Of a stretch of DNA of 64,000 nt, positions 2,880-57,530 are shown one piece after another. Under the pieces are notes generated by a model. It saw only the letters and a list, made by a program, of their open reading frames with translations, had not been told where the DNA came from and searched no databases. Location: contig NC_089429.1 of NCBI RefSeq assembly GCF_026210795.1, forward strand, positions 1,860,001-1,924,000, written 5' to 3'. Numbering within the stretch: position 1 is the stretch's first letter; every line of letters starts with the position of its first letter. The stretch is from Rhizophagus irregularis. Taxonomy: Eukaryota. Made by a program: the position numbers and the translations under genes.

Positions 2880-3200
2880 TTAAAAATGCAATGAGTAGTT
2901 AATTGCCATGTAAATATTATCCAATTTTATGATCTCAAAAATGGAAAACAAATATTTATTGGTTATGGAGTATGCTGGTTGTGAATCATTACAATTGTGT
3001 ATTGATTTTTTAATTTGATTAAATCAAGCAATAAATTAAATATACAGTATATTCATTTTAGCATACATAAATGTACTTGTACATCAAAATAGAATAAAGT
3101 TTGCAGACTTTGATTTATCAAAAAAATAATCAATGCATCACATAATCCAGCAGATATCCTTGGTGTAATTCCTATATTGACCAAAATATTTAATAATATT
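2880..3200 (+). pseudogene. Decayed protein kinase fragment
   Basis: Broken frames translate to KYLLVMEYAG, NVLVHQNRIKFADFDLSKK and DILGVIP; frameshifts and deletions. Confidence 0.55.
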
Positions 3201-4098
3201 AGAAATAAGTATAAAAAATTTGCATTATTCATTTTTATTTATGTATTAGAAATGGGTTTATATACTTATATGGTGCCAGAAGTCTATACTTGTCAATAAA
3301 AATGTAATACTTAAAATCTTTCAACTCCTTAAAAAAAATACAATTTAGAAAAAATAAACTGGCAACTTTATTCTTTGAGGTAAGCTCTATCAAATTACCA
3401 GTCAGATTTTTAAAAGAAGATCTACGTAAAAAGTTATAAGCATGATTTTCATATGATCAGACCAAATTTGAAACAAAATATGTTGGCCAGAACTTATGAT
3501 AATTTGGGTCGAATTCATGTATTGTGATAATGCCAGCCCGAATTATCATAATATGAATCAAATGTAATTTTTTTTAAAAAAAATTTTTTATCAATGTATG
3601 ACTCTTATGAAATGGTAGTTGCGATTTTTTATCCACTTTTTTTTATGTTTTATCTTGTTTGTAATAAAAAATTTTCAAAACTGCATTATATTAGTACTTA
3701 ACACAAGAAATCCAGTTTTTATTGGCGGAATTCCAGATCACATGTTATAGAATCAGCTCAAACAAATCACGTGATTATCGAATATAGACTTCCGGCACCA
3801 TATTTGATAATTTATAAAAAAAAATGATTTATTCAAATTACAAACTTAGAAATTTGTAAAATATTTACTACTCTAGTTTTAGTGTTTAAATAATTCTAAG
3901 AAGAGACATATTTAATATTTGGATAAAATATAAAAAAAAAAAGAATTATTTAAATTACAAACTAAGAATCTTTAAAACATTTCACTACTCTAGCCTTAGT
4001 GTTTAAATAGATCTAAAAAGAATAAAATGAGGAACAATTTTTGTTAAATGTATGGTATCAAATATTACTATATCTTTTTTAAAACACAAATAATTATG

Positions 4099-7000
4099 TT
4101 AATTTTCATTTGTTTTAATATCTAAATATTAAATAAATAAAATTAATTAATTTATTTTATAATATACCATATATTATATACACTTTACATACCTAATTTC
4201 TTCAAATTAAACATGCATTCATTCAAATCTCCGCTTACTAGCATTTCACTCACTTGTACACTAGTTTGTGAATTTTTACTTTCAAGAATTTCATTCAATT
4301 GTTCACTAGTAAAATCAAGTAAGCGACTTGTATAAAAAGCCTGTGAGTGAGATTCAGTAGCAAGATTGTTATGCCCAATTGGTGCATTTATAAATTCCAT
4401 AATATTGCATTTTAATTCTTCATTAATTTCTTCAATTTTCTTACCATAAGGAGGAAAAATCCATTCATAAATAATTTTTAAAACTTCCTTAGAAGATGGC
4501 CTTTTTAATGGATCTTTATCCCAACATTTTTTCATCAAATCTACATAGCATTGTGGAGTATTTTCAATAATTTCAGGACGTTTACCTTCACAAATACTTA
4601 AACTAAGTTGAATATCATGTGCTCTATTATTATATGGTGGTATTCCAGATGTAAATTCCCACATAATCATAGAAAAACTGTATATATCACTAGCTGGAGT
4701 ATAAGATTTACCTCTTAAAACTTCAGGTGCCATAAATGGTACAACACCATAAATATCATATTTTTTCAAAAATGATTTTACAGGTTTACATAATCCTAAA
4801 TCACTAATATAAATTTTACTCTCATTATGATTTAAAATATTGCCATCATGAAGATCACAATGAATAAGATTTTGTTTATGTATATTATCAAGTCCAGAAA
4901 TAATTTCATACAACATGTATAATTTTTGATCCCAATCACTTTCAATTATTCTTGTTAAGTTTTCTCTTAAATTACCTTTGTTTGCATAATCCATTACTGC
5001 CATATATTTCAAAGTATCTGGATTTTTTGTAAATCCATAAAAATAGATAATTTCAAATGAATTTAAACAACTTTCATGATATTTCCACTATAAAAAATAA
5101 TAAACATATTAATATAAGTAAATTATAATTTAAATTAAAAAAATAAATAATATAAATATCATACTTCATTTAAAAATTCATTTAAATTTTCATTTAAAGT
5201 ATTATGGCATTTGAGAATTACATCTTTATTATCTCCATCATTCATCAACCATGTAGCTTTATATATAGTACCAAACCCTCCTTCATTAAGATATTCAACA
5301 TTTTTAAATTTATTATAAGGAATCCATCTTAACATTTTTTCATGAATAAATTTATCTATGATTTTATTTCCACTTTTTCCAAATCTATAATTTAAAAAAT
5401 TAAAATTATATTAAAGTTTATAATAAAATTTACACTGAAATTTAAGATTAAAATTAACACTTACTCTAAAATTTAAATAGGAATTTAAGATAATATATGT
5501 CTTAGTTTTTTGTATAAATATTTATAATAATACATAACCTACCAACTAAAGTAATAGAAATTTTAAAATAAAAGAATACAGTTAACAAATAAATATTATT
5601 AAAATATATAACAATAGAAATAACAAATAACTTACAAGCTTTATTATTAAATAATTTTTTAAATAAAGAATTTAGTTAGTTTAAATTATGTGTATATATT
5701 ATAACAATAAATAATAATAGAATTAAATAAATAACTTATAACTTACGATCTATTAAATAAATAATTTAGTTAGTTTAAATTATATGTAAATATTATAACA
5801 ATAAGTAATAATAGAAATGAATAAATAACTTACTAACTAAAAGAAATTACAAAATAATTTTTTAAATAAAGAATTTAGTTTATATGTAAATATTATAATA
5901 ATAAGTACTGATAATAGAATTAAATAAATAACTTACTCTCTATATTATTTAAATAATTATTTAAATAAAGAATTTAGTTTAACTTATACGTAAAAATCTT
6001 AACAATAAGTAATAATAAAATTAAATAACCTACCAACTAAAGAAATTACAAAAATAATTTTATAAATAAAGAATTTAGTTAGTTTAAATTATATGCAAAT
6101 ATTATTGTAACAATAAGTAATAATAGAATTAATTAATAACTTACACCCTATATTATTTAAATAATTTTTTAAATAAAGAATTTAGTTAATTTAAATTATA
6201 TGCAAATATTCAGTTATAACAAAGTAATAGTAATAAATAACTTACACCCTATATTATTTAATTTAAATAATTTAAATAAAGAATTTAGTTAATTTAAATT
6301 ATATGCAAATATTATAACAATAAGTAAATATAGAATTAAATAAATAACTTATAACTTACGATCTATTAATAAATAAAGAATTTAGTTAGTTTACATTATA
6401 TGTAAATATTATAAAATAGAATTAAATAAATAACTTACCAACTAAAAGAAATTACAAAATAATTTTTTAAATAAAGAATATATTTATTTAGTTAGGTTAA
6501 ATTATATGTAAATATTATAATAATAAGTAATAATAGAATTAAATAAATAACTTATAGCTTACGATCTATTAAATAAAGAATTTAGTTAGTTTAAATTATA
6601 TGCAAATATTATAACAATAAGTAATAATAGAATTAAATAAATAACTTATAACTTACGATCTATTAAATAAGAATTTAATTAGTTTAAATTATATGTAAAT
6701 ATTATAAAAATAAGTAATAATAGAATCAAATAAATAACTTACACCCTATATTATTTAAATAATTTTTTAAATAAAGGAATTTAATTAGTTTAAATTATAT
6801 GCAAATATTATAACAATAAGTAATAATAAAATTAAATAAATAACTTATAACTTACGATCTATTAAATAAAGAATTAAATTAGTTTAAATTATATGTAAAT
6901 ATTATAAAAATAAGTTAAATAAATAACTTATAACTTACGATCTATTAAATAAAGTATTTAGTTAGTTTAAATCATATATTATAACAATAAGTAATAATAG

Positions 7001-8428
7001 AATTAAATAAATAACTTACTCTCTATATTATTATTTAAATAATTTTTAAATAAAGAATTTAATTAGTTTAAATTATATGTAAATATTATAACAACAAGTA
7101 ATAATAGAATTAAATAAATAACTTACCAACTAAAAGAAATTACATTAAATAAAGAATTTAATTAGTTTAAATTATATGTTAATATTATAACAACAAGTAA
7201 TAATACTAGTATTAAATAAATAACTTATAACTTACGATCTATTAAATAAAGAAATTAGATAGTTTAAATTATATGTAAATATTATAACAATAAGTAATAA
7301 TAGAATTAAATAAATAACTTATAACTTACGATCTATTAAATAAGAATTTAGTTAGTTTAAATTATATGTAAATGTTATAACAATAAGCAATTGAATTAAA
7401 TAAATAACTTACTCTCTATATTATTTAAATAAATAAAGAAATTAGTTAGTTTAAATTATATATAAATATTATAACAATAAGTTATAATAGAATTAAATAA
7501 ATAACTTACTCTCTATATTAGTATTTAATGATTTTTAAATAAAGAATTTAGTTTAAATTAAATATTATAATAATAAGTAATAATAGAATTAAATAAATAA
7601 CTTACTTTCTATATTATTTAAATAATTTTTTAAATAAATAATTTAGTTAGATTAAATTATATTTAAATAGCAATAAGTAATGATAGAATTAAATAAATAA
7701 CTTATAACTTACGATCTATTAAACAAAGAATTAAGTTAGTTTAAATCATATACAAATATTATAACAATAAGTAATAATAGAATTAAATAAATAACTTACC
7801 AACTAAAAGAAATTACAAAATAATTTTTTAAATAAAGAATTTAGTTAGCTTAAATATAGAAATATAGACGTCATATAACTTACACCCTGTAGTATTATTA
7901 ATTTTTAATCAGTTAGGTATAAATATAATAGGAAAGTATTTACTATAAATTAATATATCACTTACAATCTATTTAAATTAAAAATATAATTAGTTAAATT
8001 ATATTAAAATATTAGATGTCAATAAATAAATATATTAAATATAATAATATCCTTAAGTATTATAACTTACCAGCTGTAATATAATTAATTATTTATTTAA
8101 ACAAAGTATTTAGTTATTTGAGTAAAATAAACAAAGTAAAAAACTAAAAATTTAAATAACTGATAACTTACAAACTATAGTATTAATAATCATTAAATAA
8201 ATTATTTAGTTATATATATAATATAGTTAGTTTGTATTTGTACATTATGCAAGTATTTTAATATTTTTGCTTGTTTAATATACCTGTACTCCTTTCCTTA
8301 AATCCTCCAGTATCATTTCCTTCAAACTCTACTATATTGCAAAATTGTTTAAAATTTTTATGGGATAATTCTAATTTTATATTATATATTTATGCTGTAT
8401 TATTACCTTTACTAATACATTGACCCAT
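4099..8428 (-). CDS. TKL-type protein kinase with N-terminal acylation motif and micro-exon array (predicted 34 coding exons, 430 aa)
   Basis: Exons 8428-8407, 8331-8284, 28 x 3 nt (8174 down to 5543), 5465 (1 nt), 5384-5165, 5087-4193, 4121-4099; sum 1293 nt, all GT-AG, no internal stop. Motifs EGGFGTIY, VILK, HCDLHDGN, DLG, APE, DIYSF. Confidence 0.85.
5385..8283 (-). repeat. Tandem array of 76-121 nt intron units separated by 1-3 nt micro-exons
   Basis: Each + strand unit contains (a/c)cttac or cctac (reverse of a GTAAG/GTAGG donor), 3 variable nt, then ct (reverse of AG); most also contain ttagttagt (reverse of ACTAACTAA branch site). Confidence 0.85.
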
Positions 8429-9060
8429 TACTATATCAAATTCTTCCTAATCAAAAAGATAAAGTAAATATCTTTTTTTCTTTTTTTATTATTTATATTA
8501 AATACCTTATTAGTACAGATAAATATGGTAACAATATTTATGCAAATACAATATGCTGACAAGTATTGCATGTATGACAAAACAAATTTTGCATGTCCGG
8601 AAATGCATGTCAATCATCTTGTTGTTACATAGTAGTAAAAATCACAAAATAGAGAAAGTTTTCTCAATACATATTATATAAATTTTTTAAGTCATTAAGA
8701 TTATGTTTGGCTACTAAGATTACTTAGAAGACAAAGAACAGCAAAGGTAGTTCTAATTATTATCACTTTTGATTTTTAATCAAAAACCAACTTGAAAATG
8801 ATCGGCATATACTTAATTTTTTTTATTTTAATATTTTTAATATTTAATACTTATAAAACTATTATAAATCAAATAATTTAATGAAATTATATTTAAACAC
8901 GTAGATAATGTATTATTTTTTTTATCAAATATTTATATTAAAATTATTTACAATTAAGTATACACAAAATTTTTTTATTAAAATAAAACTAGAAAATAAG
9001 TTTATTAATTATAAAATATTTAACTTTGAAATTAAAAGTCATGTGAGGGTGAAAATTTTT

Positions 9061-16535: not shown

Positions 16536-17865
16536 ATTTGCAAAAGAGGAAAGAGAGATATTATATTTAAAATTTTCAGATATTTAGACATAACGGATCA
16601 ACTGATCATAACATTTATAGAATCAACGTGACTCAAACAATATTCACTTCACTATTTAACTTTAAAAATTAATATTTTGAAAAACATTGCTAATTAAACA
16701 GTTAAAAGTGTATGGAGAATAATCCTCATTTCTCTCTAACTTAAATGAAAAAAATTATTTAACTTACAAAATTTAAACTTAAATTTACTCAATCCTTTTA
16801 TATATGTTCTTATTCAAAAATTCTATTATTTATTAACATTTTTAACCTTTGAGATCTTTGATAATTAGTGAAAAGCTATTTCTATATTTTGTTAGTCCTA
16901 GTTTGCTTATTAATTAATATCATCAACTTTTTAAAACAGCCTAAAATTTCGGTCCGCTTTTAGAATAATGAAAGTTAATTTGTATGCAGAAGACTTCAAT
17001 TTAAAAATAATATTTCTTTATTGATTACATTTATATTACTAAATTCTTAGAATTTTTACTTATTTGCTATACAAAATATAAAATTAACTTTTATAGTTGC
17101 GTTCAGAACCCTTGTTAGTTTTTATATTTGATGCGAATCCTGATGATGACATGTATTGAATTGTACGTATTTTCAAACAACTTTATTATGAAATTACAAG
17201 TAAGGAATAAAATGCTACCAGATCTTTCTAGAACTTTGATGAGTTTTAATCTAATCCAACTTATAATTCCCCGTATGTCCACATAGCATGAAACAAAACT
17301 ATATTTAGTATGACAACTAATTTAATTAGTAATTTAGCTATCTAATTTTTTTGCTAATAATGAACATACGCAAAGGATTTGTAGATGATCTTTTGTCATC
17401 TTTCTAATTTAATTATAACATTCATCAATCAGGGTTGCTTCAAGATGCATGATCACTATGCTTGTACTATACCTATAATCGTACCTAATACTTTAGATTA
17501 TTTATCTTAATTTTAACGAAATAAATGAAATTTTTTCATTTGGATATTTTTATAATTTTATCACATACTCCTAATTAGTAAATATTAGTTACCATCTAAA
17601 AATTTATTACAAAAACAGCATTTACCTTCAAACAGATTCAAATGATTAGTAATTTGGCCTCTTTACATTTTTTTATCTATTAATTTATAACTTATTTATT
17701 TATTTTAGGATTGTCTATTAGTTTAGAAAGTTAGGCAAGTTTTGCACTTACTATCGTTTGTTTACTACTAACAATAGATAGTATAAAAAATGACGTGTTA
17801 TGTACATAAATGAAAAATGATAAACATTTTCTTTAAGCATTGTATGAGGCAGCGGCATCACTACA

Positions 17866-17950
17866 CGATATTTGTCGCACAATTTTTTTTTGCAGATCAT
17901 GATCATGTGTAGTAACTTGTGCAACAAACGGAGTTTCCGCTCCGAAATTC
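17866..17950 (+). promoter_or_regulatory. Conserved upstream module of F-box paralogs
   Basis: GATATTTGTCGCACAA..GATCATG..TGCAACAAACGGAGTTTCCGCTCCGAAATT; similar copies at about 28546-28622 (+), 35485-35595 (-), 41541-41625 (-), 61204-61322 (-). Confidence 0.55.
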
Positions 17951-18018
17951 AAATAATAAATTTATCATATTGGCGTAACTTTGGAATCCCCTTTTCTCCC
18001 TTCTTTTTTTCATTTAAT

Positions 18019-19686
18019 ATGGCATGCTCAAAGTTATTTTCAGGAGACTTACCCGAGTTAATGAACGAAGTTATACAATATTTTCATTATGATCATAAAA
18101 CATTACATTCATGTATATTAGTTAACAGATTATGGTGTCGTTTAGCAATCCCATTATTATGGGAAGATCCTTTTTCAATTAAAGATCCTAAAAATTATCA
18201 TTTCATTGAAATTTATTTGCATTATTTAAATGATGATGATAAAACGAAATTAAATGAATATGTAATTCATAATGAATTATTTCCTTCAAATGCATTATTT
18301 AATTATCCTAGTTTTATTCAACATTTAAGTTCATTTAAGATTTGTTGTTCTATTGAAAAGTGGATTACAACTGTTGGGACTTCAACAACTAGTAATGAGC
18401 AACATTCTAGATATTTTACACGAAAAACAAATTTACAAATTCCAATCTCTACAAAATTAATATATAAGTTGTTATTTCTAATATTCATTGAAAACGGAGC
18501 AAATTTGCATAGTTTTGAAGTTACGTTTATTAGGAAGATTGAAATTGATTATTTTAATGAGATTTTTGAATTAATTTTACAAAATCCGAATTTCATTTAT
18601 AATATTAAAAATTTTAAAATTGATTTCCATGAAATAACTGATAACATAATGGAGTTTTTAAGAAATATCTACTCTAATTGCAAATCAATTTCGTCACTTG
18701 ATTTTCAATTTCCATCATGTAATTTTAATTATTCAGTAATTGAAAAAAGCTTATCACAATTAATTAAATCTCAGGAAAATCTTCAAAAGATTTTATTTGG
18801 TTATAACGATTCACCATTGCATCATTCATTATTATCATTAAAATATTCTGATTGTTCAAATACATTAAATACAATTATATTTTATCATGTTGATTTTAAA
18901 AATATAGTTGTTTTAAACGAAGCCTTTAATCAGCTGAATGCTTTAGAATCAATTCATATTGTTTATTGTTATTCCCTAGATTCTAATTTTGTTCAACAAA
19001 TTAGTAATGTCACTAAACCTTTTAAATTAAAGTCTTTATTTATGCGTGGAATTTTACAAATTGAATCATTAAAATTGTTAATGCAAAAATTTGGCAATTA
19101 TATAGAAAATATTGGAATTACGAACAAAGAATCACAACAATTATTACAATTAATTATAAAATATTGTAGCAATATTAAATATTTGGTTACTACTTGGTTA
19201 GATACTACTAAGAGTGTTTATTTATTATTTAGTTTAATTGAAAATATTACACAAAATCTTAATTATCTTACAATTAATTGTCCTCGTTACTCTGAAAGTT
19301 ACTATTTTAGTTCAATTATATTACAAAATTTAGGACAAATACTTCCTTTTAAATTAAAGTATTTAAATTTAATTCTTATGATTAGTAATACGATTAATTT
19401 GGAAATATTCTTAAAAAATTTACAAAATACTTTTATTAAAAGATTGTTAATAAAAAATGTAATAGTGAAAGAAGAAAATGAAGATATTTTCCCCTATATA
19501 AAAGAATATATTATGAAAACGAAAAGAGTTGAGTATTTGGCTATTTTGGAGAATATTGATGGAAAATATGAAGATTTATTTTTCCAGAAAGAAAAAGTGA
19601 AGGTATTCCAATTACATGGTATAAAAGTTTTAAATTACAGTGATTTGGTTATTAATGTTTATGATTTTATAAAAGAAATTTGTTAG
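18019..19686 (+). CDS. F-box-like/LRR protein, 555 aa
   Basis: Start set at the MACSKLFSGDLPEL ATG shared by paralogs; the longer ORF-track call begins at a non-ATG codon in the promoter. Confidence 0.88.
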   Translation: MACSKLFSGDLPELMNEVIQYFHYDHKTLHSCILVNRLWCRLAIPLLWEDPFSIKDPKNYHFIEIYLHYLNDDDKTKLNEYVIHNELFPSNALFNYPSFIQHLSSFKICCSIEKWITTVGTSTTSNEQHSRYFTRKTNLQIPISTKLIYKLLFLIFIENGANLHSFEVTFIRKIEIDYFNEIFELILQNPNFIYNIKNFKIDFHEITDNIMEFLRNIYSNCKSISSLDFQFPSCNFNYSVIEKSLSQLIKSQENLQKILFGYNDSPLHHSLLSLKYSDCSNTLNTIIFYHVDFKNIVVLNEAFNQLNALESIHIVYCYSLDSNFVQQISNVTKPFKLKSLFMRGILQIESLKLLMQKFGNYIENIGITNKESQQLLQLIIKYCSNIKYLVTTWLDTTKSVYLLFSLIENITQNLNYLTINCPRYSESYYFSSIILQNLGQILPFKLKYLNLILMISNTINLEIFLKNLQNTFIKRLLIKNVIVKEENEDIFPYIKEYIMKTKRVEYLAILENIDGKYEDLFFQKEKVKVFQLHGIKVLNYSDLVINVYDFIKEIC

Positions 19687-23574: not shown

Positions 23575-23960
23575 TGACATTTTACCTGTTCATGCTTGAT
23601 ATTCATCTGTCCGTGCTTGATATTTATCTGTACGTGTTTGATATTTTTATCTGTTCATGCTTGATGTTTATCTATCACGTGCTTGATATTTTTATCTGTT
23701 CATGCTTGATGTTTATCTGTACGTGCTTGATGTTTTATCTGTACGTGCTTGATGTTTTATCTGTACGTGCTTGATGTTTTATCTGTACCGTGCTTGATGT
23801 TTATCTGTATGTGCTTGATATTTATCTGTACGTGCTTGATGGTTTTATCTGTACGTGCTTGATAGTTTTATCTGACCATGCTTGACATTTTTATCCGTCC
23901 GTGCTTTATGTTTTTATCCATTTGTGCTTGATATTTTTGTCCGTCTGTGCTTGATGTTTT
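23575..23960. repeat. 21-23 bp subterminal tandem repeat (gtacgtgcttgatgttttatct), mirrored at about 27070-27410
   Basis: Direct inspection of both arms. Confidence 0.9.
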
Positions 23961-25169
23961 TGTCCAACTGTGTTTGATTTAATCCAACTATGTTTGATAA
24001 TTTTATCTTTGTCAAAAATTAGTTTCTTTGTCAGCACAGGGTTGATATATTGTTGGTCACATGTTTTTAAGTTTAGCGTAGTTTTAAAAAAAAATTTTTT
24101 TTTTTATTGGCTTTTTTTTATAAACAAATTTTGTAGAGAATTTTTATTTTTAATATAGGCAAAGGCTTTGTTTGGTAGAATTTCTTTGGGAATTTTTTAA
24201 TAAGATTGATAAAAAATTTCGTTAGAAAATTTTTTTCATTGATAGGGACATTTCTGAGTTTTTTTTTTTGATGATAATTTCGGAGAATTTTTTTTAATAA
24301 GATTTTTTTTTTGACATATACTTAATTTGTTGGAACAATTTTTTCTTTTAACAGGAGAGATTTTTTTTTTTTTGATAGAGAATTAATTGAGAATTTTTTT
24401 TTTTGTAGAAAATTATTTGAAGAATTTTTTTAATAGGGAAGATTTTTTTTTGATAGATAATTTCGTTACTAAAAATTTTTTTAACAAGTGAGATTTTTTT
24501 TTGATAGAGAATTTCGTTAAGAATTTTTTTTTAATAGGAGGGAGTTTTCCTTGATAAAGAATTCTTTTGGGAATTTTTTTTAATAGTATTTTTGACGGAG
24601 AATTTTATTAGAGAATTTTTTTTTTTTTTTGATAGAAATTTCATCATAGAATTTTTTTTTAATAGGTAAGATTTTTTTTTTTTTTTTGATAAAATCATTT
24701 CGTTAATAATTTTTTTAACAGGAGATTTTTTTTTTGATAGAAAATTTCGGTAAAGAATTTTTTTTTTAATAGGAAGGAAGTTTTTTTTTATAGAAATTCT
24801 TTTGAAAACTTTTTTTAATAGGTAAGAATCTTTGAATTTTTTTTTAATAGGGAAAATGTATTTTTTGATGGAAGATTTTTGTTAGAAATTTTTCTTAATC
24901 ATGGATATTTTTTTTGATTGAGAATTTCATTAGAGAATTGTTGGTTGAAAAGCCTTTTTATTTTTTTGATGGAGAATTTTGTTAGAAGTCTCAATAGAAA
25001 ATTTTATTGAAAATAGTTTTTTTTTAATAAGGGTATCGAGAATTTTGGCTTGAAATTTTTTTTTTTAATAAAGAATTTCATTAGAGATCTTTTTTTTTTA
25101 TAAAAAATTGATTGAAAATTTATTGGAAAATTTTTTATTAAATTTTACAATTTTAATAAATTTTTACTC

Positions 25170-25720
25170 CTCTTCATCTTCCCATTACTTCTTTTAATCT
25201 TCCATCGCTCCTTTTCGTCTCCCATCACTCCTTTTTGTCTCCTATCACTCCTTTTCGTCTCCCATCACTCTTTTTCGTCTCCCATCGCTCCCTTTCGTCT
25301 CCTATCACTTCTCTTAATCTTCTCATCACTTCTTTTCGTCTCCCATCACTCCTTTTCGTCTCCCATCACTCCTCTTAATCTTCCCATCACTTCTTTTCGT
25401 CACTCATCACTCCTCTTAATCTTCTCATCACTTCTTTTCGTCTCCCATCACTCCTTTTTATCTCCCATCACTCCTCTTCATCACCCATCACACCTCTTTG
25501 TCTCCCATTACTTCTTTTCGTCTTTCATCACTTCTTTTTGTCTCCCATCACTCCTCTTAATCTTCCCATCACTTCTTTTTTTTTATCTCCCATCACTCTT
25601 CTTTGTCACCCATCACTTCTTTTCATCTCTCATCATGTCCTATTTCTTCTTTTGGTTCCTATCACTTCTTATTACTCTTTTTTACTCCCTTTCATCTTCT
25701 ATTACTTTCCATTACTCCAT
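25170..25720. repeat. 20-21 bp pyrimidine-rich minisatellite (tctcccatcactccttttcg)
   Basis: Over 20 degenerate tandem units in the spacer of the foldback element. Confidence 0.9.
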
Positions 25721-27541
25721 TGTTATTTTATTTTTTTTCCTTGATCATTGTAATTTACTTATCTTTTTTATTTATTGTTATTGTTTCTTTTATTTGTACA
25801 TTTCAATAAAAATAAATATGGTGATTTTATTCTTTAAAATCGTAAATGTGACTTAAATTTTAATATTTGTAAATAAAATTTCATTAAATAAGATTATTTT
25901 GAATAAATATGTTTGCAAAAAAATTTTTTTAAAAAATATCTATAATAACCGATCAAAAATTAGATACATATTTGAAAAAAAAACCCCAGGCGATGATCGC
26001 CTAGGCGACATTTAGCAATCCCAATTTTTATTTATATATATTAAAAGTATTTAAAATAGTAGATTTTCAAAAATGTTTTTATGCCAATTAATGATAAAAA
26101 GAAGAAACACTGCAAACAAATTTCTGCTATATACTTTTCTTAAAGTTAACATTATTAACTTTTTAATTTATGTCGGCTCATGCGGAGCTTTACTAGTATA
26201 TAAAATTTGCTTAATTTACTATGCTACTTAGGATTCTATCATAGTTTTTTTTAATTTTATCTTGATCTTATTAATGTAATTTAGTATTTTTTTTAATTTT
26301 ATAAAAAAAGATCTCTAATGAAATTCTTTATTAAAAAAAAAAATTTCAAGCCAAAATTCTCGATACCCTTATTAAAAAAAAACTATTTTCAATAAAATTT
26401 TCTATTAAAAAAAAACAAAATATTTTGTTATAAAGTATAGAAAAGAGTAAAATGTATTGTAAGAAAAAAATTGAGACTTCTAACAAAATTCTCCATCAAA
26501 AAAATAAAAAAACTTTTCAACCAACAATTCTCTAATGAAATTCTCAATCAAAAAAAAATATCCCTGATTAAGAAAAATTTCTAACGAAAATCTTCCATCA
26601 AAAAATACATTTTCCCTATTAAAAAAAAAATTCTTTACCGAAATTTTCTATCAAAAAAAAAATTTCCTGTTAAAAAAATTATTAACGAAATGATCTATCA
26701 AAAAAAAAAATCTTACCTATTAAAAAAAAAATTCTATGATGAAATTTATATCAAAAAAAAAAAAAAAATTCTCTAATAAAATTCTCTGTCAAAAAATACT
26801 TTCACTTATTAAAAAAAATTCCCAAAAGAATTCTTTATCAAGGAAAACTCCCTCCTATTAAAAAAAAATTCTTAACGAAATTCTCTATCAAAAAAAAATC
26901 TCACTTGTTAAAAAAAATTTTCTAGTAACGAAATTATCTATCAAAAAAAAAATCTTCCCTATAAACTTAAAACATGTGACCAACAATATATCAACCCTGT
27001 GCTGACAAAGAAACTAATTTTTGACAAAGATAAAATTATTGAACATAGTTGGATTAAATCAAACACAGTTGGACAAAAACATCAAGCACAGACGGACAAA
27101 AATATCAAGCACAGATGGATAAAAACATAAAGCATGGACGGATAAAAATGTCAAGCATGGTCGGATAAAACCATCAAGCACGTACAGATAAAACCATCAA
27201 GCACGTACAGATAAATATCAAGCACGTACAGATAAACATCAAACACGTACAGATAAAACATCAAGCACGTACAGATAAAACATCAAGCATGTACAGATAA
27301 ACATCAAGCATGAACAGATAAAAATATCAAGCACGTGATAGATAAACATCAAGCATGAACAGATAAAAATATCAAGCACGGGACAGATGAAAATCAAGCA
27401 TAAACAGGTAAAATGTCAGACACAGAGTGACATTTTGTCTAGCCATGCTTGATATTTTATCGCGCAATGTCTGATAATTTTGTCCAACTCGGCTTGCCAT
27501 ATATTAATTAAATAACTTTACAGTACGTATTTACCTGGTCG

Positions 27542-27865: not shown

Positions 27866-28712
27866 TGAGAGATATAGGGGTAGCACCCTTAGTGATAATC
27901 CTATGCTTGATAACATTTGTACGTCCAATTTCTGTCTGACTTTTCGCGCAGATATCTGCATAATCATTTAATAGTTGCTGAAATTGGGTTTGTTGCTGAT
28001 AATCCAAGGTCTAAGGTGTAAATCGGGGTTGGCTTTTTCTTCAGTAAAGACTGAATTCAGCTTGGGCTAGAAAAATAGCAGGGTTTGATTATAGTTAACT
28101 TTTCGATATTGCCCTAATCAGCAGTTGATTATTTTTGTCTGGATAATCTTCAAACCCATTAAGTGGAAAGCGTATATCAATTTTAAAATGTTCTCACCGG
28201 CTTTTCAATTATTAAACTTTCAATACTACTTGGTAAAAACGTACTAGTTACAATATTTTTCTAGTAGTACAAAAGAGAATTGTTTTACATTATTACATTT
28301 ATCAAAAATTAATTTATAAATTTCTTCTAGTATAATTAATTAATGAAAACGAATTAATTTTCTATAATTTATTTTTTTTTTTAGGAGTAAATTAGGTCTT
28401 ATTATCGTTTAGTTACTAAAATATGAAACAATTATGGTATAAAAAAATGATGTACAAATGAAAATTATGAATATTGATTTTTTTTTTTTAAAAAAAAAAT
28501 AAACATATGACCGACTATCAAGCTTTATTCAATTAAGATCGGTATGATATTTGTCGCACAATTAATTTTTGTAGATCATAGTGATCATGTGTGCAACAAA
28601 CGGAGTTTCCGCTCCGAAATTCAATAAATTTACCATATTTGACGTGAACTTCTTATTTCGGAATCTCTTATTTCGGAATCCCCTTTTCTCTCTTCCTTTT
28701 TTTTCGTTTAAT

Positions 28713-30398
28713 ATGGCATGTTCAAAGTTATTTTTAGGAGATTTACCTGAGTTAATAAGCAAAGTTATACAATATTTTCGTTATAACCATAAAACATTAC
28801 ATTCATGTATATTGGTTAATAGATTATGGTGTCGTTTAGCAATCCCATTATTATGGGAAGATCCTTTTTCAATTAAAGATCCTAAAAATTATCATTTCAT
28901 TAAAATTTATTTACATTATTTAAATGATGATGATAAAACGAAATTAAATGAATATGTAATTCATAATGAATTATTTCCTACAAATACATTATTTAATTAT
29001 CCTAGTTTTATTCAGCGTTTAAATACATACAAAGTTTGTTATTCTGTCCAAAAGTGGATTGCAACTGTTAAAACTTCAACAACGAGCAATGAGCGATATT
29101 TTGTACGAAATACAAATTTAACATTTATACAAATATTAAACTTTACAAAATTAATATACAAGTCATTATTCTTAATATTCATTGAAAACAAAGTAAATTT
29201 GCATAGTTTTGAAGTTACGTTGCCTAAAGATATTGATATTGATTGGTTTGATGAGATTTTTGAATTAATTTTACAAAATCCGAATTTCATTTATAATATT
29301 AAAAATTTTGAAATTAATTTGTATATAATAACTGCTGATAACATAACAAAATTTTTAAGAGTTGTCTACTCTAATTGCTATTCAATTTCATCACTTTATA
29401 TTATAGTTCCAAAGTATTATGATATTTCTACTTATTCTATAATTGAAAAAAGTTTATCACAATTAATTAATTCTCAAGAAAATCTTCAAAAGATTTCATT
29501 CGGTTTTAATAAATTCCCATTGTATCATTCATTATTATCATTAAAAAGTCATAATTGCTCAAACACATTAAACACAATTATCTTTTACTATGTCAATTTT
29601 AAAGATATAATTGTTTTAAATGAAGTATTCAATCAACTGAATGTCTTAGAATCAATTCATATTGTTTGTTGTTATTCCTTAGATTATAATTTTATTCAAC
29701 AAATTAGTAATGTTATTAGACCTTTTAAATTAAAATCTTTATTTTTGCATGAAACATTACAAATTGAATCATTGAAATTATTAATACAAAAATCTGGTAA
29801 TTATCTAGAAAATTTTGGAATTAGTTTTGGAATTACAGACAATGAATCACAACAACTACTACCATTAATTATAAAATATAGTAGTAAAATCAAATATTTG
29901 GAAACTACTTGGTTAGATAATGAGAGTGTTTATTTATTATTTAGTTTAATTGAAAACATTACACAAAATCTTAGTTACCTTATAATTAATTATATTGATT
30001 TTAATTACTTTGATAGACATAATATTAGTTCAATTATATTACAAAATTTAGGACAAATTCTTCCTCTTAAATTAGAATATTTGAATCTAATTCTTTCAGT
30101 TAATACAAGTGACTTGAAAATTTTTTTAGAAAATTTTCAAAATACTTTTATTAAAAAATTTCTAATTAGAAATACAAAGAATGATGAAAGTCAAGATATT
30201 TTGCCTTATATAAAAGAATACATTGTAAAAAAGAAAAGAGTTAAGTATTTGGCTATTTCAAAAACTTTTTATGGAGAAAATGAAGATTTGTTTTTTCAGA
30301 AAGATGTAGTAAAGGAATTTCAATTACATGATATTCAAGTTTTAAATTATGATGATTTGCTTATCGATTTTTATAATTTTATAAAAGAAGTTGATTAG
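28713..30398 (+). CDS. F-box-like/LRR protein, 561 aa
   Basis: MACSKLFLGDLPEL start and full family motifs; shares flanks with the 18019 gene. Confidence 0.88.
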   Translation: MACSKLFLGDLPELISKVIQYFRYNHKTLHSCILVNRLWCRLAIPLLWEDPFSIKDPKNYHFIKIYLHYLNDDDKTKLNEYVIHNELFPTNTLFNYPSFIQRLNTYKVCYSVQKWIATVKTSTTSNERYFVRNTNLTFIQILNFTKLIYKSLFLIFIENKVNLHSFEVTLPKDIDIDWFDEIFELILQNPNFIYNIKNFEINLYIITADNITKFLRVVYSNCYSISSLYIIVPKYYDISTYSIIEKSLSQLINSQENLQKISFGFNKFPLYHSLLSLKSHNCSNTLNTIIFYYVNFKDIIVLNEVFNQLNVLESIHIVCCYSLDYNFIQQISNVIRPFKLKSLFLHETLQIESLKLLIQKSGNYLENFGISFGITDNESQQLLPLIIKYSSKIKYLETTWLDNESVYLLFSLIENITQNLSYLIINYIDFNYFDRHNISSIILQNLGQILPLKLEYLNLILSVNTSDLKIFLENFQNTFIKKFLIRNTKNDESQDILPYIKEYIVKKKRVKYLAISKTFYGENEDLFFQKDVVKEFQLHDIQVLNYDDLLIDFYNFIKEVD

Positions 30399-30550: not shown

Positions 30551-30855
30551 TGTTTATAAATAATTACAGTATGTTGATAAATAATTACAGTATAATTACA
30601 GTATGTCTATATATAAAGAACTACAGTATGTTTATAAATAATTACAGTATGTTTATAAATAATAATACAATATGCTTATAAATAATAATTACAGTATGTT
30701 TATAAATAACAATTACAGTATGTTTATAAATAATACTAATTTCAGTATGTTTATAAATAATTACAGTATGTTTATAAATAATTACAGATGTTTATAAATA
30801 ATAATTACAGTATGTTTATAAATAATAATTACAGTATGTTTATAAATAATTACAG
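30551..30855. repeat. 21-24 bp minisatellite (gtttataaataattacagtat)
   Basis: About 13 tandem units ending about 50 nt before the next ATG. Confidence 0.9.
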
Positions 30856-30903
30856 CTAATCCATAAAATGGCAATTTCAGAATTCCTCTCTCTCTCTCCA
30901 ATA

Positions 30904-32520
30904 ATGGCATGTTCAAAGTTATTTTCAGGAGATTTGCCAGAATTAATAAACGAAGTTATACAATATTTTCGTTATAACCATAAAACATTACATTCATGTA
31001 TATTGGTTAATAGATTATGGTGTCGTTTAGCAATTCCATTATTATGGGAAGACCCATTTTCAATTAAATCCCCTAAAAATTATCATTTCATTGAAATTTA
31101 TTTACATTATTTGAATAATGATGATAAAGCAAAATTAAATGAATATGTAATTCATAATGAATTACTTCCTTCAAACACATTATTTAATTATCCTAGATTC
31201 ATTCAACGTTTAGATACATATAAAGTTTGGTTTTCTATTGAAAAATGGGTTGCAACTGTCGGGACTTCAACAACAAGAGTAAAACATATTTTTAGATCAT
31301 TATTTCTGATATTCATTGAAAATGAAGTTAGTTTGCATAGTTTTAAAATAAAAATAACTCCAACATGTGGTGATATTATTGAATTAATTTTACAAAATCC
31401 AAATTTCATCTGTAATATCATATATCTTCAACTTGATTTTGATATGATGATAACTGATAATACAAAAAGATTTTTAATATTTATCCATTCGAATTGCAAT
31501 TCAATCTCATCACTTGATTTTCTATTCCCATCAATGGCATCAAGTGTATATTATCATTCAATAGTTGAAAAAAGCTTATTACAAATAATTAAATCTCAAG
31601 AAAAACTCAGAAAGATTTCATTTAGGTTTATTGAAGAATATCCAATTTACCATTACTTATCATCATTAAAAAACCCTAATTGCTTAAATACATTAAATAC
31701 AATTATGTTTCATCATATTGATTTCAAAAACATAGATATTTTGAGTGAAGTATTTAATCAATTACATGTTTTAGAATCAATTCATATTATTAATTGTTAT
31801 TCTTTAGATTCTAAATTTATTCAACAGATTATTAATATTACAAAACCATTTAAATTAAAATCTTTATTTTTGGATGATAAAATAAGTGAATTAATATTAG
31901 AACCATTAATACAAAAATTTGGCTGTTATTTAGAAAATTTTGGAGTTAATCACAATATATCACAAAAATTACTACAATTAATTATAAAATATTGTAGCAA
32001 AATTAACTACTTGGGTCCTATTCGATTTAATCATAAAAATAACAAGAATGTTTATTTATTATTTAGATTAATTAAAAATATTACACAAAATCTTAATTAT
32101 CTTACAATTGAAGCCTCTAATATTAGCTATAATTATATAAATTATGGTTCTAGTTCAATTATATTACAAAATTTAGGACAAATTCTTCCTTTTAAATTAA
32201 AATATTTGAATTTGAGTCTTACAATTAATACCAGTGATTTGGAAATATTCTTAAAGAATTCTCAAAGCACTTTCATTAAAAAATTGTTAATAAAATATAT
32301 AAAGAAAGAAGAAAATGAAGATATTTTCCCCTATATAAAAGAATATATTATGAAAACGAATAGAGTCAAGTATTTGGCTATTGTGGAGAATTTTAATGAA
32401 AAATATGAAGATTTATTTTCCCAGAAAGATAAAGTGGAGGAATTCCAATTATATAGTAATATAAAAGTTATGTATTACAGTGATCTGGTTAATAATACCT
32501 TTTATTCAATTAAAAGATGA
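30904..32520 (+). CDS. F-box-like/LRR protein, 538 aa (550 aa if ATG 30868 is used)
   Basis: MACSKLFSGDLPEL start and family motifs. Confidence 0.85.
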   Translation: MACSKLFSGDLPELINEVIQYFRYNHKTLHSCILVNRLWCRLAIPLLWEDPFSIKSPKNYHFIEIYLHYLNNDDKAKLNEYVIHNELLPSNTLFNYPRFIQRLDTYKVWFSIEKWVATVGTSTTRVKHIFRSLFLIFIENEVSLHSFKIKITPTCGDIIELILQNPNFICNIIYLQLDFDMMITDNTKRFLIFIHSNCNSISSLDFLFPSMASSVYYHSIVEKSLLQIIKSQEKLRKISFRFIEEYPIYHYLSSLKNPNCLNTLNTIMFHHIDFKNIDILSEVFNQLHVLESIHIINCYSLDSKFIQQIINITKPFKLKSLFLDDKISELILEPLIQKFGCYLENFGVNHNISQKLLQLIIKYCSKINYLGPIRFNHKNNKNVYLLFRLIKNITQNLNYLTIEASNISYNYINYGSSSIILQNLGQILPFKLKYLNLSLTINTSDLEIFLKNSQSTFIKKLLIKYIKKEENEDIFPYIKEYIMKTNRVKYLAIVENFNEKYEDLFSQKDKVEEFQLYSNIKVMYYSDLVNNTFYSIKR

Positions 32521-36310: not shown

Positions 36311-36545
36311 AATTGTTCAGAAAGTTTAGACATTTAATTTTATTAATCTGTTATTAGTACGCAAATCAAGAGTCATTCAACTGACGTAAGAAGAAACTTG
36401 TTTGTGTCACATGATCAAACAAATGATCAGCTGATCTGTTGTGTTCAAATATCGCGGGGAATAAGAATTATGGAAATTCCGAAAACTTTATAATTTTTTT
36501 TGAAATTTTTAAAAACATCATAATATCCCTTTTTCTTTTTCAAAT

Positions 36546-38150
36546 ATGGCATGTTCAAAAATATTTTCAGGAAATCTGCCTGAATTAACAAGTAAAATTA
36601 TGCAGAATTTTCAAGAAGATTTTTCGACATTACATTCATGTGTTTTAGTTAGTAGGTCATGGTGTCGTTTGGCAATTCCATTATTGTGGGAGGACCCATT
36701 TTATAAGTATCTTCCTAAAAATTATCATTTTATTGATATTTACTTAGATAAATTAAAGAAAGATGACAAAGTAAAATTAAATGAATATGGAATTATTACA
36801 GATTTATTTCCCTCAAATACATTATTTAATTATCCTAAATTTATTAAATGTTTAAATATAAAAAATACTGTTTCTTCCATTAAAAATTGGATTGAAAATG
36901 CAAAAGTTTCATCTTATGATAAAGATTTGAAATTGTCAAATTTTATTTTTTTTTCATTAATCAAAGTATTTATTGAAAATGAAGCTAGTTTACATACTTT
37001 TGAAGTTCAATATATTTTTAATAGTGATTATTTTAAATCCTCCTTTCAACTAATCCTACAAAATCCAAATTTCATTTGTAACGTTAAAGACCTAAAATTT
37101 GATTTTCGCAGATTAACTAGTAATTTATTGTCATCACTAAAATGTTTTTATTCTAATTGTAAATCAATTTCATCACTTTATATTTATTCTTTGATAGAAA
37201 ATTATGCTGTAAAAGATTTATCTAAAATAATTCATTCACAACAAAACCTTAAAAAGATTTGTTTTGATTCTGAAATTTGTATTTTAAAAAGTTTAAAGAA
37301 TTCCAATTGTTCAAATACCTTAAAAACGATTATATTTTATGGAATTGATTTCGAGAATTTGAAATTTGATTTTAATGAGATATTTGAACAATTAAATGTT
37401 TTAGAGTCTATTCATATTCTTTATTGCTCTTCTCCTTTAAATTCTACCATTATTCAACAAATTGTTAATTTAACTAAACCATTTAAATTGAAATCCTTAT
37501 TTATAGATGAATTTTATGCAACACAAATTGAGTCATTAAAATTATTATTACAAAAGTCGGGTAATTATTTGGAAAATATTGGATTTGAATTATCAATGGA
37601 TCATGAAACTGATCTACAATTCATTAAATTGATCAAAATTTATTGTAATAATATTATATTTTTAGAAGTATTTGGATATGGTGATCAAAATATTTTCGCA
37701 TCATTTGATTTAATTAAAAATGTTCAACAAAATCTTAATTATCTTACTATTAATTCTCAATCAAAACTTAGTTCAATTATATTACGAAATTTGAGACAAA
37801 TTCTTCCTAATAGATTAGAATATTTAAGTTTGGATCTTAAATTCAGTATAAACGATTTGGAAGTGTTGTTTAAAGATACTAAAAATGTTTTTATTAGGAA
37901 ATTATTAATCATAAATAGGCAAGAAAGCGATGACATTTTACCTTGCATTAAGAAATATATTATGAAAGAAAAAAGGGTCGCATATTTAGCTGTAAAGGTT
38001 TTTTTTATTTCCTCTAATAGAGTAACAACTATAAAGGATCTTTTTCATTCAAAGGATGAAGTAGAAGAGTTTAAACTTTATGATATTCAAGTTACAAATT
38101 ATGATGTTTCACGCATTCAAGTTTGTAAATTTATAAATGAAATGTATTAG
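36546..38150 (+). CDS. F-box-like/LRR protein, 534 aa (subfamily B)
   Basis: MACSKIFSGNLPEL..DFSTLHSC..WCRLAIPLLWEDPF. Confidence 0.88.
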   Translation: MACSKIFSGNLPELTSKIMQNFQEDFSTLHSCVLVSRSWCRLAIPLLWEDPFYKYLPKNYHFIDIYLDKLKKDDKVKLNEYGIITDLFPSNTLFNYPKFIKCLNIKNTVSSIKNWIENAKVSSYDKDLKLSNFIFFSLIKVFIENEASLHTFEVQYIFNSDYFKSSFQLILQNPNFICNVKDLKFDFRRLTSNLLSSLKCFYSNCKSISSLYIYSLIENYAVKDLSKIIHSQQNLKKICFDSEICILKSLKNSNCSNTLKTIIFYGIDFENLKFDFNEIFEQLNVLESIHILYCSSPLNSTIIQQIVNLTKPFKLKSLFIDEFYATQIESLKLLLQKSGNYLENIGFELSMDHETDLQFIKLIKIYCNNIIFLEVFGYGDQNIFASFDLIKNVQQNLNYLTINSQSKLSSIILRNLRQILPNRLEYLSLDLKFSINDLEVLFKDTKNVFIRKLLIINRQESDDILPCIKKYIMKEKRVAYLAVKVFFISSNRVTTIKDLFHSKDEVEEFKLYDIQVTNYDVSRIQVCKFINEMY

Positions 38151-44282: not shown

Positions 44283-44497
44283 ATAAGGATTCCGATGTAA
44301 ACTCGCGTTTACTTAAATTAAGATTAGATAGCTGCGGTTATTTAATTATTGCATTGCGATTACACTAATTATAGACATGTCATGATCAGCTGATCCATTG
44401 TGTCTCGGGGGAATAGAAACTCCGAAACATTATATAAATTTTGTTGAAAATTTGAAAATTTTAAATCATAATATTCACCCTTTCCTTCTTTTTCAAT

Positions 44498-46099
44498 ATG
44501 GCATGTTCAAAATTTTTTTCAGGAGATTTACCTGAATTAACAAATGAAATTATACAGTATTTTCGGAATGATTTTTCTACATTACATTCATGTATTTTAG
44601 TTAATAGATTATGGTGTCGTTTGGCGATTCCATCATTGTGGGAGGACCCGTTCTCAAAGGGGTATCCTAAAAATTATCACTTTATTGATATTTACTTACA
44701 CAAATTAAATGATGACGACAAAATAAAATTGAATGAATATGGAATTAATACTGAAGTGCTTCCTTCAAATATATTATTTAATTATTCTAGTTATATTAAA
44801 TGTCTAAACACATACAGAGTTCGTAGTACTATTGAAACCTGGGCTATAAACGCAATGGTTTCAAACTTTGACGCAGTTTTGAAATTGTCAAGTTTTATTT
44901 TCATATCATTAATCAAAATATTTATTGAAAATGAAGCTACTTTATATACTTTTGAATTTAGACTTCTATATGACAAGGATTTAAGTAGTTATGTTTGTTT
45001 CAATTCCGCTTTTCAGTTAATCTTACAAAATCCCAATTTTATCTGTAATGTTAAAAATCTGAAAATTTATTTAAATAGTTATAGTGATTTATCACTATTT
45101 ATGAAATGCTTTTATTATAATTGCAGATCAATTTCATCACTTTATGTTCATTCTTTAATAGATGATCCTGTTGAAAAAGGTTTATCCAACCTGATTAATT
45201 CACAACAAAACCTTAAAATAATTCATATTGATTGTAGTAATAATTCTTTAAAAAATTTTCAAATTTCTAATTGTTCAAATACTTTAAAATCAATTATATT
45301 TCATAAGACTTATTTAGAATATTTGGGAATTAATTTTAATGAGATTTTTGATCAATTAAATGTTTTAGATTCTATTCATATTCTTTATTGTTATTCTTTA
45401 AGCTCTACTATTATTCAGCAAATTATTAATCTAACTAAACCATTTAAATTAAGATCTTTATTTATGGATAGAAGTTCTATATTACAAATTGATTTATTAA
45501 TATTATTATTACAAAAGTCTGGTAATTATTTAGAAAATATTGGATTTAGATCATCAATAAATAACAATTATAAACTACAAGCATTTAAATTAGTTAAGAT
45601 TCATTGTAATAAAATCAAATTTATAGATTTACAAGGATTTGATGATAAAAATATTTTTTCAGCATTAAATTTAATTGAAAATATTCAACAAAATCTTAAT
45701 TATCTTTCAATTTGTTTGTCAAAATTTGGTTTATATCAATCAGATAATCTTAGTTCACTTATATTACAAAATTTAGGACAAATTCTTCCTAATAGATTAG
45801 AATATTTAAGTTTGGATCTTAAAATCAATATAAATGATTTGAAAGTATTTTTCAATAATTCTCAAAATGTTTTTATTAGGAGGTTTTTAATCAGAGAAAA
45901 GACGCATCAAGATAGTGAAATCATTTTATCTTGTATTAAGCAATATGTTATGAAAGAAAAAAGGGTCGCATATTTAGCTACAGATAGTATTCCTATTGGT
46001 TCTAATGATGTAGAAGAGTTTAAAGTTCATGGTATTCAAGTTATGAGATATGATCAATTACATATTCAAGTTTATGATTTTATAAACGAATTGAGTTAG
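44498..46099 (+). CDS. F-box-like/LRR protein, 533 aa (subfamily B)
   Basis: MACSKFFSGDLPEL..DFSTLHSC and family motifs. Confidence 0.88.
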   Translation: MACSKFFSGDLPELTNEIIQYFRNDFSTLHSCILVNRLWCRLAIPSLWEDPFSKGYPKNYHFIDIYLHKLNDDDKIKLNEYGINTEVLPSNILFNYSSYIKCLNTYRVRSTIETWAINAMVSNFDAVLKLSSFIFISLIKIFIENEATLYTFEFRLLYDKDLSSYVCFNSAFQLILQNPNFICNVKNLKIYLNSYSDLSLFMKCFYYNCRSISSLYVHSLIDDPVEKGLSNLINSQQNLKIIHIDCSNNSLKNFQISNCSNTLKSIIFHKTYLEYLGINFNEIFDQLNVLDSIHILYCYSLSSTIIQQIINLTKPFKLRSLFMDRSSILQIDLLILLLQKSGNYLENIGFRSSINNNYKLQAFKLVKIHCNKIKFIDLQGFDDKNIFSALNLIENIQQNLNYLSICLSKFGLYQSDNLSSLILQNLGQILPNRLEYLSLDLKININDLKVFFNNSQNVFIRRFLIREKTHQDSEIILSCIKQYVMKEKRVAYLATDSIPIGSNDVEEFKVHGIQVMRYDQLHIQVYDFINELS

Positions 46100-56409: not shown

Positions 56410-57530
56410 TCAACAACATTCATCATCTGAATTATCAGTTTTAGTATATTTGCCTATTTTAATTAAAAAAACATGTTGTAAAACTGTTGGTGTGAAAACT
56501 ATAGATACTATATATTGCATGCGTAAATAATGAGTTTACTTACTATTTTTTTGAGTTTCATTCGGTTCATTCTTTAATTCTTCAGAATTACGCTTTCTTG
56601 AAGAATTTACGGATACAGTTAAGCTTTGAGTAGCGGAATTTGTATTTTGTATGGATGAACTAAAAAATGTATGAAATTAGTATTATTTATTTTATATTAT
56701 TAGCAATTTATATAGAATTAATTACCTTTGAATATTATTTATATCAAATTCATATTCTTTTTTAATATATTCTGAAAAATTAATAAAAGAATTAATAAAA
56801 GATATCTAAGTTAAATATAAATTTAAAGAAGTAAATTCAATTATTAATATCTTATCGTCTACCTAATGGTTCAAGTTTTTTCATTAATGGCTAATTATTA
56901 CTTAATAATATAACATACCTTGTTTGACATTAAATGAGATCATTGAAGAAGAATTTATAGTCGAAGCTTTTGAAATCAAAGAACTTAATGCTCTACTTGT
57001 ATAAATTGCTTTTGGATGAGATTTTTCACTAAATTCGGGTCCAAGTTGCTTTAATTGTATTAATACTAATCTCTTTTTTTCAGCTTGTTTAAATACTTCG
57101 TCTCCATACATTTTGTTAAGAGATTGCTCTATTTCATAACTAGTTGGTCTTTTTAAAGGGTCAGAGTCCCAACATTTTTTCATTAAATTTGCAAAACATT
57201 CAGGGGTGTCATTTGTAATTTCAGGGCGTTTTCCATCAATAATTTCATAAATAAGTTCAACGTTGTGTTCAATATTAGCAAAAGGTTTACAACCTGTCGT
57301 AACTTCTCACATAATCATACCAAAACTATATACATCAGATTCTTTTGAAAATGCAGAACCTTTAAATATTTCTGGTGCAATATAAGGTATCACTCCATAT
57401 ATTTCATTATTTGATAATGTATTATTTGCAGGTTGTGATAATCCTAAGTCTCCAACTTTCTAATATTTAGAAAATAACATATTTCTACTATGAAAATCTC
57501 GATGTACAAAATTATTATTATGAATATGCC
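56410..57530 (-). pseudogene. 5'-truncated kinase pseudogene
   Basis: HRDFHSRNML..Y*KVGDLGL..YIAPE..IM*E has two in-frame stops; N-lobe absent; small 3' exons still visible. Confidence 0.8.

Follow-up and report, generated by a model that had tools for sequence, protein, structure and literature searches.

A predicted tandem array of three-base exons upstream of a kinase domain in Rhizophagus irregularis

The window considered here is a 64-kb stretch of AT-rich, eukaryotic DNA from Rhizophagus irregularis (contig NC_089429.1, positions 1,860,001 to 1,924,000), and all coordinates below refer to it unless another locus is named. On its reverse strand, an open reading frame (ORF) at 5087-4188 encodes a kinase of the PF07714 family (122 bits against a Pfam cut-off of 23.1; E 3.5e-35) that is 100% identical to the R. 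irregularis protein P0001 (EXX54257.1). Its translation holds what we take to be the catalytic motifs of such enzymes (Gly loop, Lys, HxD..N, DxG and APE), and the kinase may be active. Upstream of it on the same strand lies a tandem array at 5385-8283, in which 30 GT-AG introns of 76–121 nt separate 29 candidate exons, 28 of them 3 nt in length and one of a single nucleotide. An original prediction, made from the letters of this stretch, had placed the array at 5639..7965 and counted 30 units; the array is real but wider, and the count suits its introns, the exons numbering 29. The array is unannotated in public gene models: the database model P0001 has 357 residues and begins at an internal Met of kinase exon A, and therefore nothing upstream of 5384 is annotated. 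We consider it probable that the array is spliced in, intron by intron, with its 28 three-base exons and the single-base exon together specifying a stretch of 29 residues.

The repeating signature is highly regular. Between 8283 and 5385 there are 28 AG-NNN-GTA(A/G)G units plus one AG-N-GTAAG unit; of the three-base units, 1000 dinucleotide shuffles had 0.065 on average and never more than 2. No other such run occurs in the 64-kb window outside 5385-8283. All 29 GTA(A/G)G donors in these 2.9 kb belong to a unit, the donor reads GTAAGT in 26 of the 30 introns, 27 introns end in TAG, and a branch-point-like CTRAY is present in 21 (shuffled mean 5.7, maximum 14). Intron lengths split 10/10/10 over the three frames while exon length is constant, and no double-length intron, the mark of a unit without its exon, was found among the 30. 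The triplets are of ten kinds, the commonest being ATC (9), TTG (5), GGT (4) and AGA (4).

The reading frame is accommodated just as closely. Phase 1 followed by 84 + 1 nt gives the exact phase of kinase exon A, and the joined frame runs free of stops from the predicted start, MGQCISK, through the whole kinase, while an in-frame stop lies inside 29 of the 30 introns. Reading the array in phase 2 was ruled out, as that frame contains stops. Because the exons are read in phase 1, each array residue would be split over two exons; the product would be polar and aromatic, with a grand average of hydropathy (GRAVY) of -1.46, and the array would supply 85 of about 1280 coding bases. Four AGA exons (7512, 7415, 7022 and 5939, reverse strand) carry a second AG and hence a tandem acceptor that, if used, would yield a 1-nt exon and a frameshift.

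The splice signals of the array are under constraint. In the 22 core introns, changes occur in 0 of 88 GT and AG cells as against 144 of 1430 in the mid-intron, and in 0 of 66 cells of the three splice G's as against 24 substitutions in 154 G/C cells (Fisher p about 1e-4 for each comparison). These p-values are optimistic, the core units being related, non-independent copies. The eight outer introns average only 63–71% likeness to the core and have kept their splice signals.

Contigs from four of 24 sequencing runs (X6, X18, X19 and X20) were compared with the window at 90% likeness, paralogs included, the joints being the 15 listed of 193 and the loose ends the 24 listed of 827. X18-X20 are probably RNA and X6 DNA, as an ordinary 77-nt intron of the kinase gene (5088-5164) is spliced in X19 and X20 (joint 5087-5165) and not in X6. 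This intron separates exon A (5165-5384), which encodes the Gly-rich loop and the region of the catalytic Lys, from exon B (4185-5087), which holds the PF07714 match and may be followed by a further small 3′ exon near 4121. Just 3′ of the gene there is a 117-bp duplication (3800-4021), doubled also at 1550-1740 of the metagenome locus L001, and these copies may be repeated small 3′ exons.

At the other end, a 75-nt GT-AG intron is predicted in the 5′ untranslated region (8431-8505), where X18 has an approximate joint, 8434-8519, with non-canonical reported ends, from this gene or a paralog. The first coding exon (8407-8430) has its ATG at 8428, encodes MGQCISK, ends in phase 1 and, in one of the X18 contigs, is spliced to the kinase exon; its peptide matches what we take to be the N-myristoylation pattern, MGxxxSK, plus a Cys for palmitoylation, and MGQ or MDQ starts also occur in the paralog models P0040, P0074, P0095 and P0152. 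A predicted 75-nt intron with a putative acceptor follows (8332-8406), required for the frame to pass an in-frame TAA, and then a 48-nt phase 1-1 exon (8284-8331) that would encode an EFEG-type acidic unit, of which paralogs have several repeats and a similar segment is present in 14 of 134 database proteins (120 plus 14 from two protein searches). The array itself opens with four diverged outer introns and three 3-nt exons (7887-8283; first bases 8174, 8073 and 7968). There follows a homogenised core of 24 three-base exons (5636-7886), with three flank classes and a shared mid-intron bearing a branch-point-like ACTAAC; the first bases of its exons are 7886, 7802, 7715, 7608, 7512, 7415, 7332, 7238, 7129, 7022, 6941, 6858, 6745, 6659, 6565, 6441, 6362, 6248, 6147, 6036, 5939, 5836, 5749 and 5638. 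The stretch 5466-5635 comprises two further diverged introns separated by a 3-nt exon (5545-5543), a single-base exon at 5465 would convert phase 1 into the phase 2 needed by kinase exon A, and the last array intron, of 80 nt, spans 5385-5464.

Removal of this last intron is seen in one X18 contig of depth 65, with a joint 5384-5465, CT..AC ends and at least 24 matching letters on each side; X6 has no such joint. In this contig, which may come from the gene or a paralog, the donor right after the single base is used and the next intron is retained, a pattern that fits serial intron removal. As the donor follows one base, the joint rules against the 5-nt exon of gene finders. Pieces without differences to the window (X18 4398-4506 and X20 5169-5306) suggest that this gene is among the transcripts.

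Each triplet carries its own flanks, as originally predicted: the characteristic flanks accompany ATC in 9 of 9 cases, TTG/TTA in 5 of 6 (the outer exon at 5545 differs) and GGT/AGA/AAA in 8 of 9 (7886 differs). Across the 22 central units, likeness is 0.87 within versus 0.67 between triplet classes for acceptor flanks and 0.96 versus 0.83 for donor flanks (p=0.0002 for each, by permutation), and likeness shows no trend along the array (rho 0.06 and 0.02, respectively). The flanks thus sort by triplet type and not by place in the array, which was one of the checks that the prediction had proposed for itself. Its cassette structure holds; GGT and AGA/AAA have one flank type (p=0.92), and there are therefore three cassette classes, not four. 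The expected divergence of outer units and likeness of central ones is also borne out, the best match to a core intron being 0.72–0.77 for the eight outer introns versus 0.83–0.97 for the 22 inner introns.

The mid-intron behaves differently from the edges. Twenty-one variants common to at least two of the 22 introns show no link to the class upstream (p=0.98) or downstream (p=0.38), which matches the suggestion that exchange takes place in the common mid-intron, and they lean weakly to nearby units (mean distance 6.5 versus 7.7, p=0.06). A link to the downstream class obtained with a fixed-offset slice (p=0.0002) was discarded, as the slice took in the class-specific tail, and a column-based test replaced it. 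The tail of intron 12 looks part ATC-type and part TTG-type, and no higher-order block repeat was detected in the class order (longest repeated word 4, p=0.87). This pattern fits repeated unequal crossing-over or conversion in the shared mid-intron, with the edges escaping, and dates no events; divergence among the inner introns amounts to about 10% of mid-intron cells, which points to a slow turnover at what the prediction had called a possible hypervariable locus. Short-read contigs break inside the repeat, and the array is spanned by none of the pieces listed. The array would probably grow, shrink and reorder through unequal exchange in the shared mid-intron, and exchange within and between loci would keep the unit uniform. 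Each such event had been expected to change the protein by about one residue without a frameshift; the frame would indeed be kept, but in phase 1 a new cassette contributes one residue and alters the adjacent one as well, and any of seven T-ending triplets can create a stop when brought together with any of five triplets starting with AA or AG.

Related arrays are found elsewhere. Among five metagenome loci, the 1-nt exon (AG-A-GTAAG) precedes exon A in L001 and L002, L002 and L003 contain 3-nt units whose mid-intron is that of the window array, and L004 and L005 were uninformative. A repeat intron of L002 is 88% like a window intron, versus 69% for its last intron and 82% for its exon A, and this one case hints at homogenisation between loci. 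At 5-148, L003 has one repeat unit, carrying an ATG triplet, in reverse orientation beside the array, and the last donor is damaged, which suggests either a broken copy or a mis-assembly. Several X18 and X19 contigs, at 5688, 5904, 6251, 6595 and 7767, match part of a unit and then continue for at least 255 unrelated letters, and the unit may also occur beside non-kinase sequence elsewhere in the genome.

The 134 database proteins comprise 53 without exon A, 30 that start inside it, six that are 5′-partial, nine that read through an intron, 19 that use an SK-type or similar bridge and 17 others. Seven of the 134, from R. irregularis and R. diaphanus, have runs of I/M/G/L/V/R, 21–66 residues in length, at the place of the array. 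These runs may be triplets called in phase 0 by gene finders, in which case the paralogs would have arrays of widely differing length and content; such apparent variation in length, the only sign of it, is between paralogs and derives from automatic gene models. The G-K, G-D and G-E pairs in the paralog peptides would become phase-1 stops wherever the Gly triplet ends in T. A ten-residue stretch of P0014 may be a partial phase-1 model, and no correctly spliced product appeared among 54 matches of a near-length search with exon A, among four matches of a search with the P0095 N-terminus, or among those of the best 150 of 857 representatives that have the WIPY motif in their first 170 residues. 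The unit pattern had zero matches in the prokaryote collection and zero in the viral one, and the kinase was not found in the genome-contig collection searched. Within the window, a second PF07714 kinase (52530-50958, reverse strand) has the common Cys-rich N-terminus and no micro-exon array, and provides an internal contrast. There is also a kinase fragment (57500-56900, reverse strand) that is a probable pseudogene with an in-frame stop near 57309, and a degenerate kinase-like remnant, noticed by eye, at 2930-3200 on the forward strand.

If the array is spliced in as proposed, its residues would sit between a predicted lipid-anchored N-terminus and the tyrosine-kinase-like domain. The short introns would be recognised by intron definition and removed in series, so that each tiny exon would by then be attached to a longer neighbour. 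In a spliced unit, a spacing different from 3 nt would throw the kinase out of frame, and this would explain the fixed exon spacing. Every exon is symmetric, so that skipping of single exons could add isoforms, as in the nank genes of Tuber. Several observations, beyond the kinship of the core units mentioned above, weigh against this proposal. A second X18 contig, at the higher depth of 249, runs from 8413 in the MGQ exon straight to 5384 and leaves out the whole array, which places MGQ exon and kinase in a single type of transcript; it would be out of frame as displayed, may contain hidden letters and possibly stems from a paralog. No 3-nt exon is included in any contig among the joints and loose ends listed, no full phase-1 product was seen among the database proteins read by eye, and no RNA joint was observed for the predicted intron 8406-8332. 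The RNA nature of the runs is a guess, and at 90% likeness the joints may stem from paralogs. The stop-free order of the triplets is not significant under shuffling (p=0.14), and the units of L002 and L003 include damaged splice sites, arrays having decayed in some copies.

The skipping joint (5384-8413) would be expected if the array were a silent minisatellite within one 2.8-kb intron, its splice-like motifs copied along with the unit and all of it left out of the mRNA with the frame kept. Tandem duplication copies motifs for free, no included triplet is found among the joints listed, and thousands of unit-like contigs in X6 (12,411 records, 6,682 of them fitting two places) show the repeat to be genome-wide. 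Silent motifs, however, would decay at the rate of their neighbours, and here the comparison is 0/88 against 144/1430: the signals stay constant while the mid-intron drifts by 10%, even in outer introns that are 63–71% like the core. Moreover, strong donors and acceptors lie 76–121 nt apart, a distance matched by the introns verified for this gene (77 and 80 nt), and could hardly be overlooked; we regard the silent minisatellite as unlikely. Another conceivable reading, followed by several database models, takes the triplets as codons in phase 0, which would form a hydrophobic segment of transmembrane type, with a 5-nt exon linking it to the kinase. This frame is open, its product would be hydrophobic (GRAVY 1.95), four different Leu codons are used in it, and in 19 of the 134 database models exon A is reached through an SK-type or similar bridge. 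Against it, the RNA joint uses the donor after one base rather than five, and the ATG-led frame ends in phase 1 both here and in P0074, P0095, P0152 and P0189. Third-position GC content is 54% in phase 0 versus 28% in phase 1 and 14% in window genes, the nine ATC copies being non-independent, and ordinary ORFs read one base off also consist of F/L/I/M/V to 52%, so that the hydrophobicity of phase 0 looks like a by-product; the phase-0 segment is a highly improbable product of this gene. Scarcely credible, finally, is the notion that the units are recursive (ratchet) splice points by which a long intron is removed stepwise, leaving few or no triplets in the mRNA. The contig partially spliced at the last intron and the array-free form in X18 would agree with it, but ratchet points are zero-length, with AG directly followed by GT, whereas three variable bases always intervene here and the last unit has exactly the one base that the frame needs.

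A further alternative keeps the splicing mechanism of the proposed reading and departs from it solely in the reason for the array. The spliced-in exons would encode a peptide of no consequence, and the array would be a frame-safe, self-splicing-neutral repeat that drifts in number and is tolerated, or selfish, in a floppy linker. The few triplet types with many repeats would suit such an expansion, as would the lack of a higher-order class pattern (longest word 4, p=0.87), the transcription of an array-free form (X18) and the paralog arrays that look very unlike in length and make-up. Conversely, 30 extra introns per gene cost time and error, the unit seems to be kept uniform between loci (one case, L002), and the analogous Tuber system belongs, in the passages available, to a putative immune-receptor family. 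A tolerated expansion is a serious possibility to which we give somewhat less than an even chance. Within the proposed splicing reading, selection for diversity, in a partner-binding or decoy segment, and a tolerated linker are about evenly balanced. More tentative, and in our view rather doubtful, is the broader idea of a membrane-anchored kinase subfamily of the Glomeraceae that draws on a genome-wide pool of one-codon cassettes, traded within and between loci by recombination and reshuffled by exon skipping, as a residue-by-residue generator of N-terminal peptide diversity.

Codon-sized microexons have precedents. In the nank NLR family of Tuber melanosporum, multiple codon-sized, alternatively spliced microexons are described in the passages available (PMC4986451, PMC10197012). 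As far as those passages go, both systems involve an expanded signaling family of a mycorrhizal fungus with multiple 3-bp exons (28 units with intact splice sites here) and frame-safe steps of one residue. The gene described here, in contrast, encodes a PF07714 kinase from the Glomeromycotina without a NACHT or ankyrin part, only kinase families having been matched in the Pfam search. Its exon-intron unit is a homogenised tandem repeat of three classes, in phase 1 and closed by a 1-nt exon, and alternative splicing of its exons is a possibility, whereas the nank microexons are alternatively spliced. By analogy, the array may work as nank does; the gene is not a nank gene, as it differs in host protein, lineage and cassette repeat. 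The micro-exon genes (MEGs) of Schistosoma mansoni, according to the portion of the report available, have 10–20 exons mostly of 15 bp, introns of 0.1–5 kb and secreted products (bioRxiv 10.1101/2023.06.21.545858). They resemble the array in their runs of tiny exons, mostly multiples of 3 and missed by automatic annotation. They differ in that the array has 29 exons of 3 or 1 nt, repeat introns of only 76–121 nt, 85 of about 1280 coding bases in micro-exons rather than the greater part of them and, as host, a predicted cytoplasmic kinase with an MGxxxSK start.

Single internal exons of 1 or 3 nt are spliced in other organisms, including fungi, and the examples in the excerpts available from Arabidopsis (PMC4674806), the CYP621A gene of Fusarium (PMC12940212) and hth of Drosophila (PMC7392893) are isolated tiny exons rather than an array of 29. 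The expansion of PF07714 kinases in R. irregularis is known (PMC6123716), the present kinase being one among 1311 matches at E<=1e-30; exon arrays are not mentioned in the passages seen from that study, and the models in databases either open within exon A or cross the array by artefacts. A literature search returned no report of such arrays in the Glomeromycotina, although subscription papers (such as Iotti 2012) or supplements could mention one. Codon-sized microexons are known as such, and a homogenised tandem exon repeat in a kinase family was unreported in the literature searched.

Should the array be spliced as predicted, with 30 introns for 85 bases, few conceivable coding stretches could be denser in introns, and the array would be a natural system in which to study how the spliceosome copes with consecutive 1–3-nt exons. 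The N-termini of many kinases in the databases of this model arbuscular mycorrhizal fungus would also be wrong. With this layout, a kinase family could change its N-terminal part and stay in frame; if arrays vary between isolates or nuclei, they would also be a tangible source of protein diversity in a fungus that has long been regarded as clonal. If the idea of a diversity generator were true, a symbiont that is multinucleate and largely clonal could give each gene, nucleus or transcript an N-terminal recognition peptide of its own, and the system would be the fungal equivalent of variable immune or decoy receptors.

The window has two other features. Two pairs of tandem arrays have reverse-complement consensus units (23580-24007 with 27076-27413, and 24364-24827 with 26526-26950), and a 20-bp array (25166-25635) lies inside both inverted pairs; by this arrangement, 23580-27413 resembles a foldback element of 3.8 kb whose inverted arms are modular. 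There are also nine intron-free paralogs of 544–612 codons that start with M(A/T)CSK, six on the forward strand (216-1910, 17848-19683, 28575-30395, 30850-32517, 36513-38147 and 44465-46096) and three on the reverse strand (41515-39809, 35593-33764 and 61191-59425). The first of these has no Pfam match, and we presume the nine to be F-box/LRR-like.

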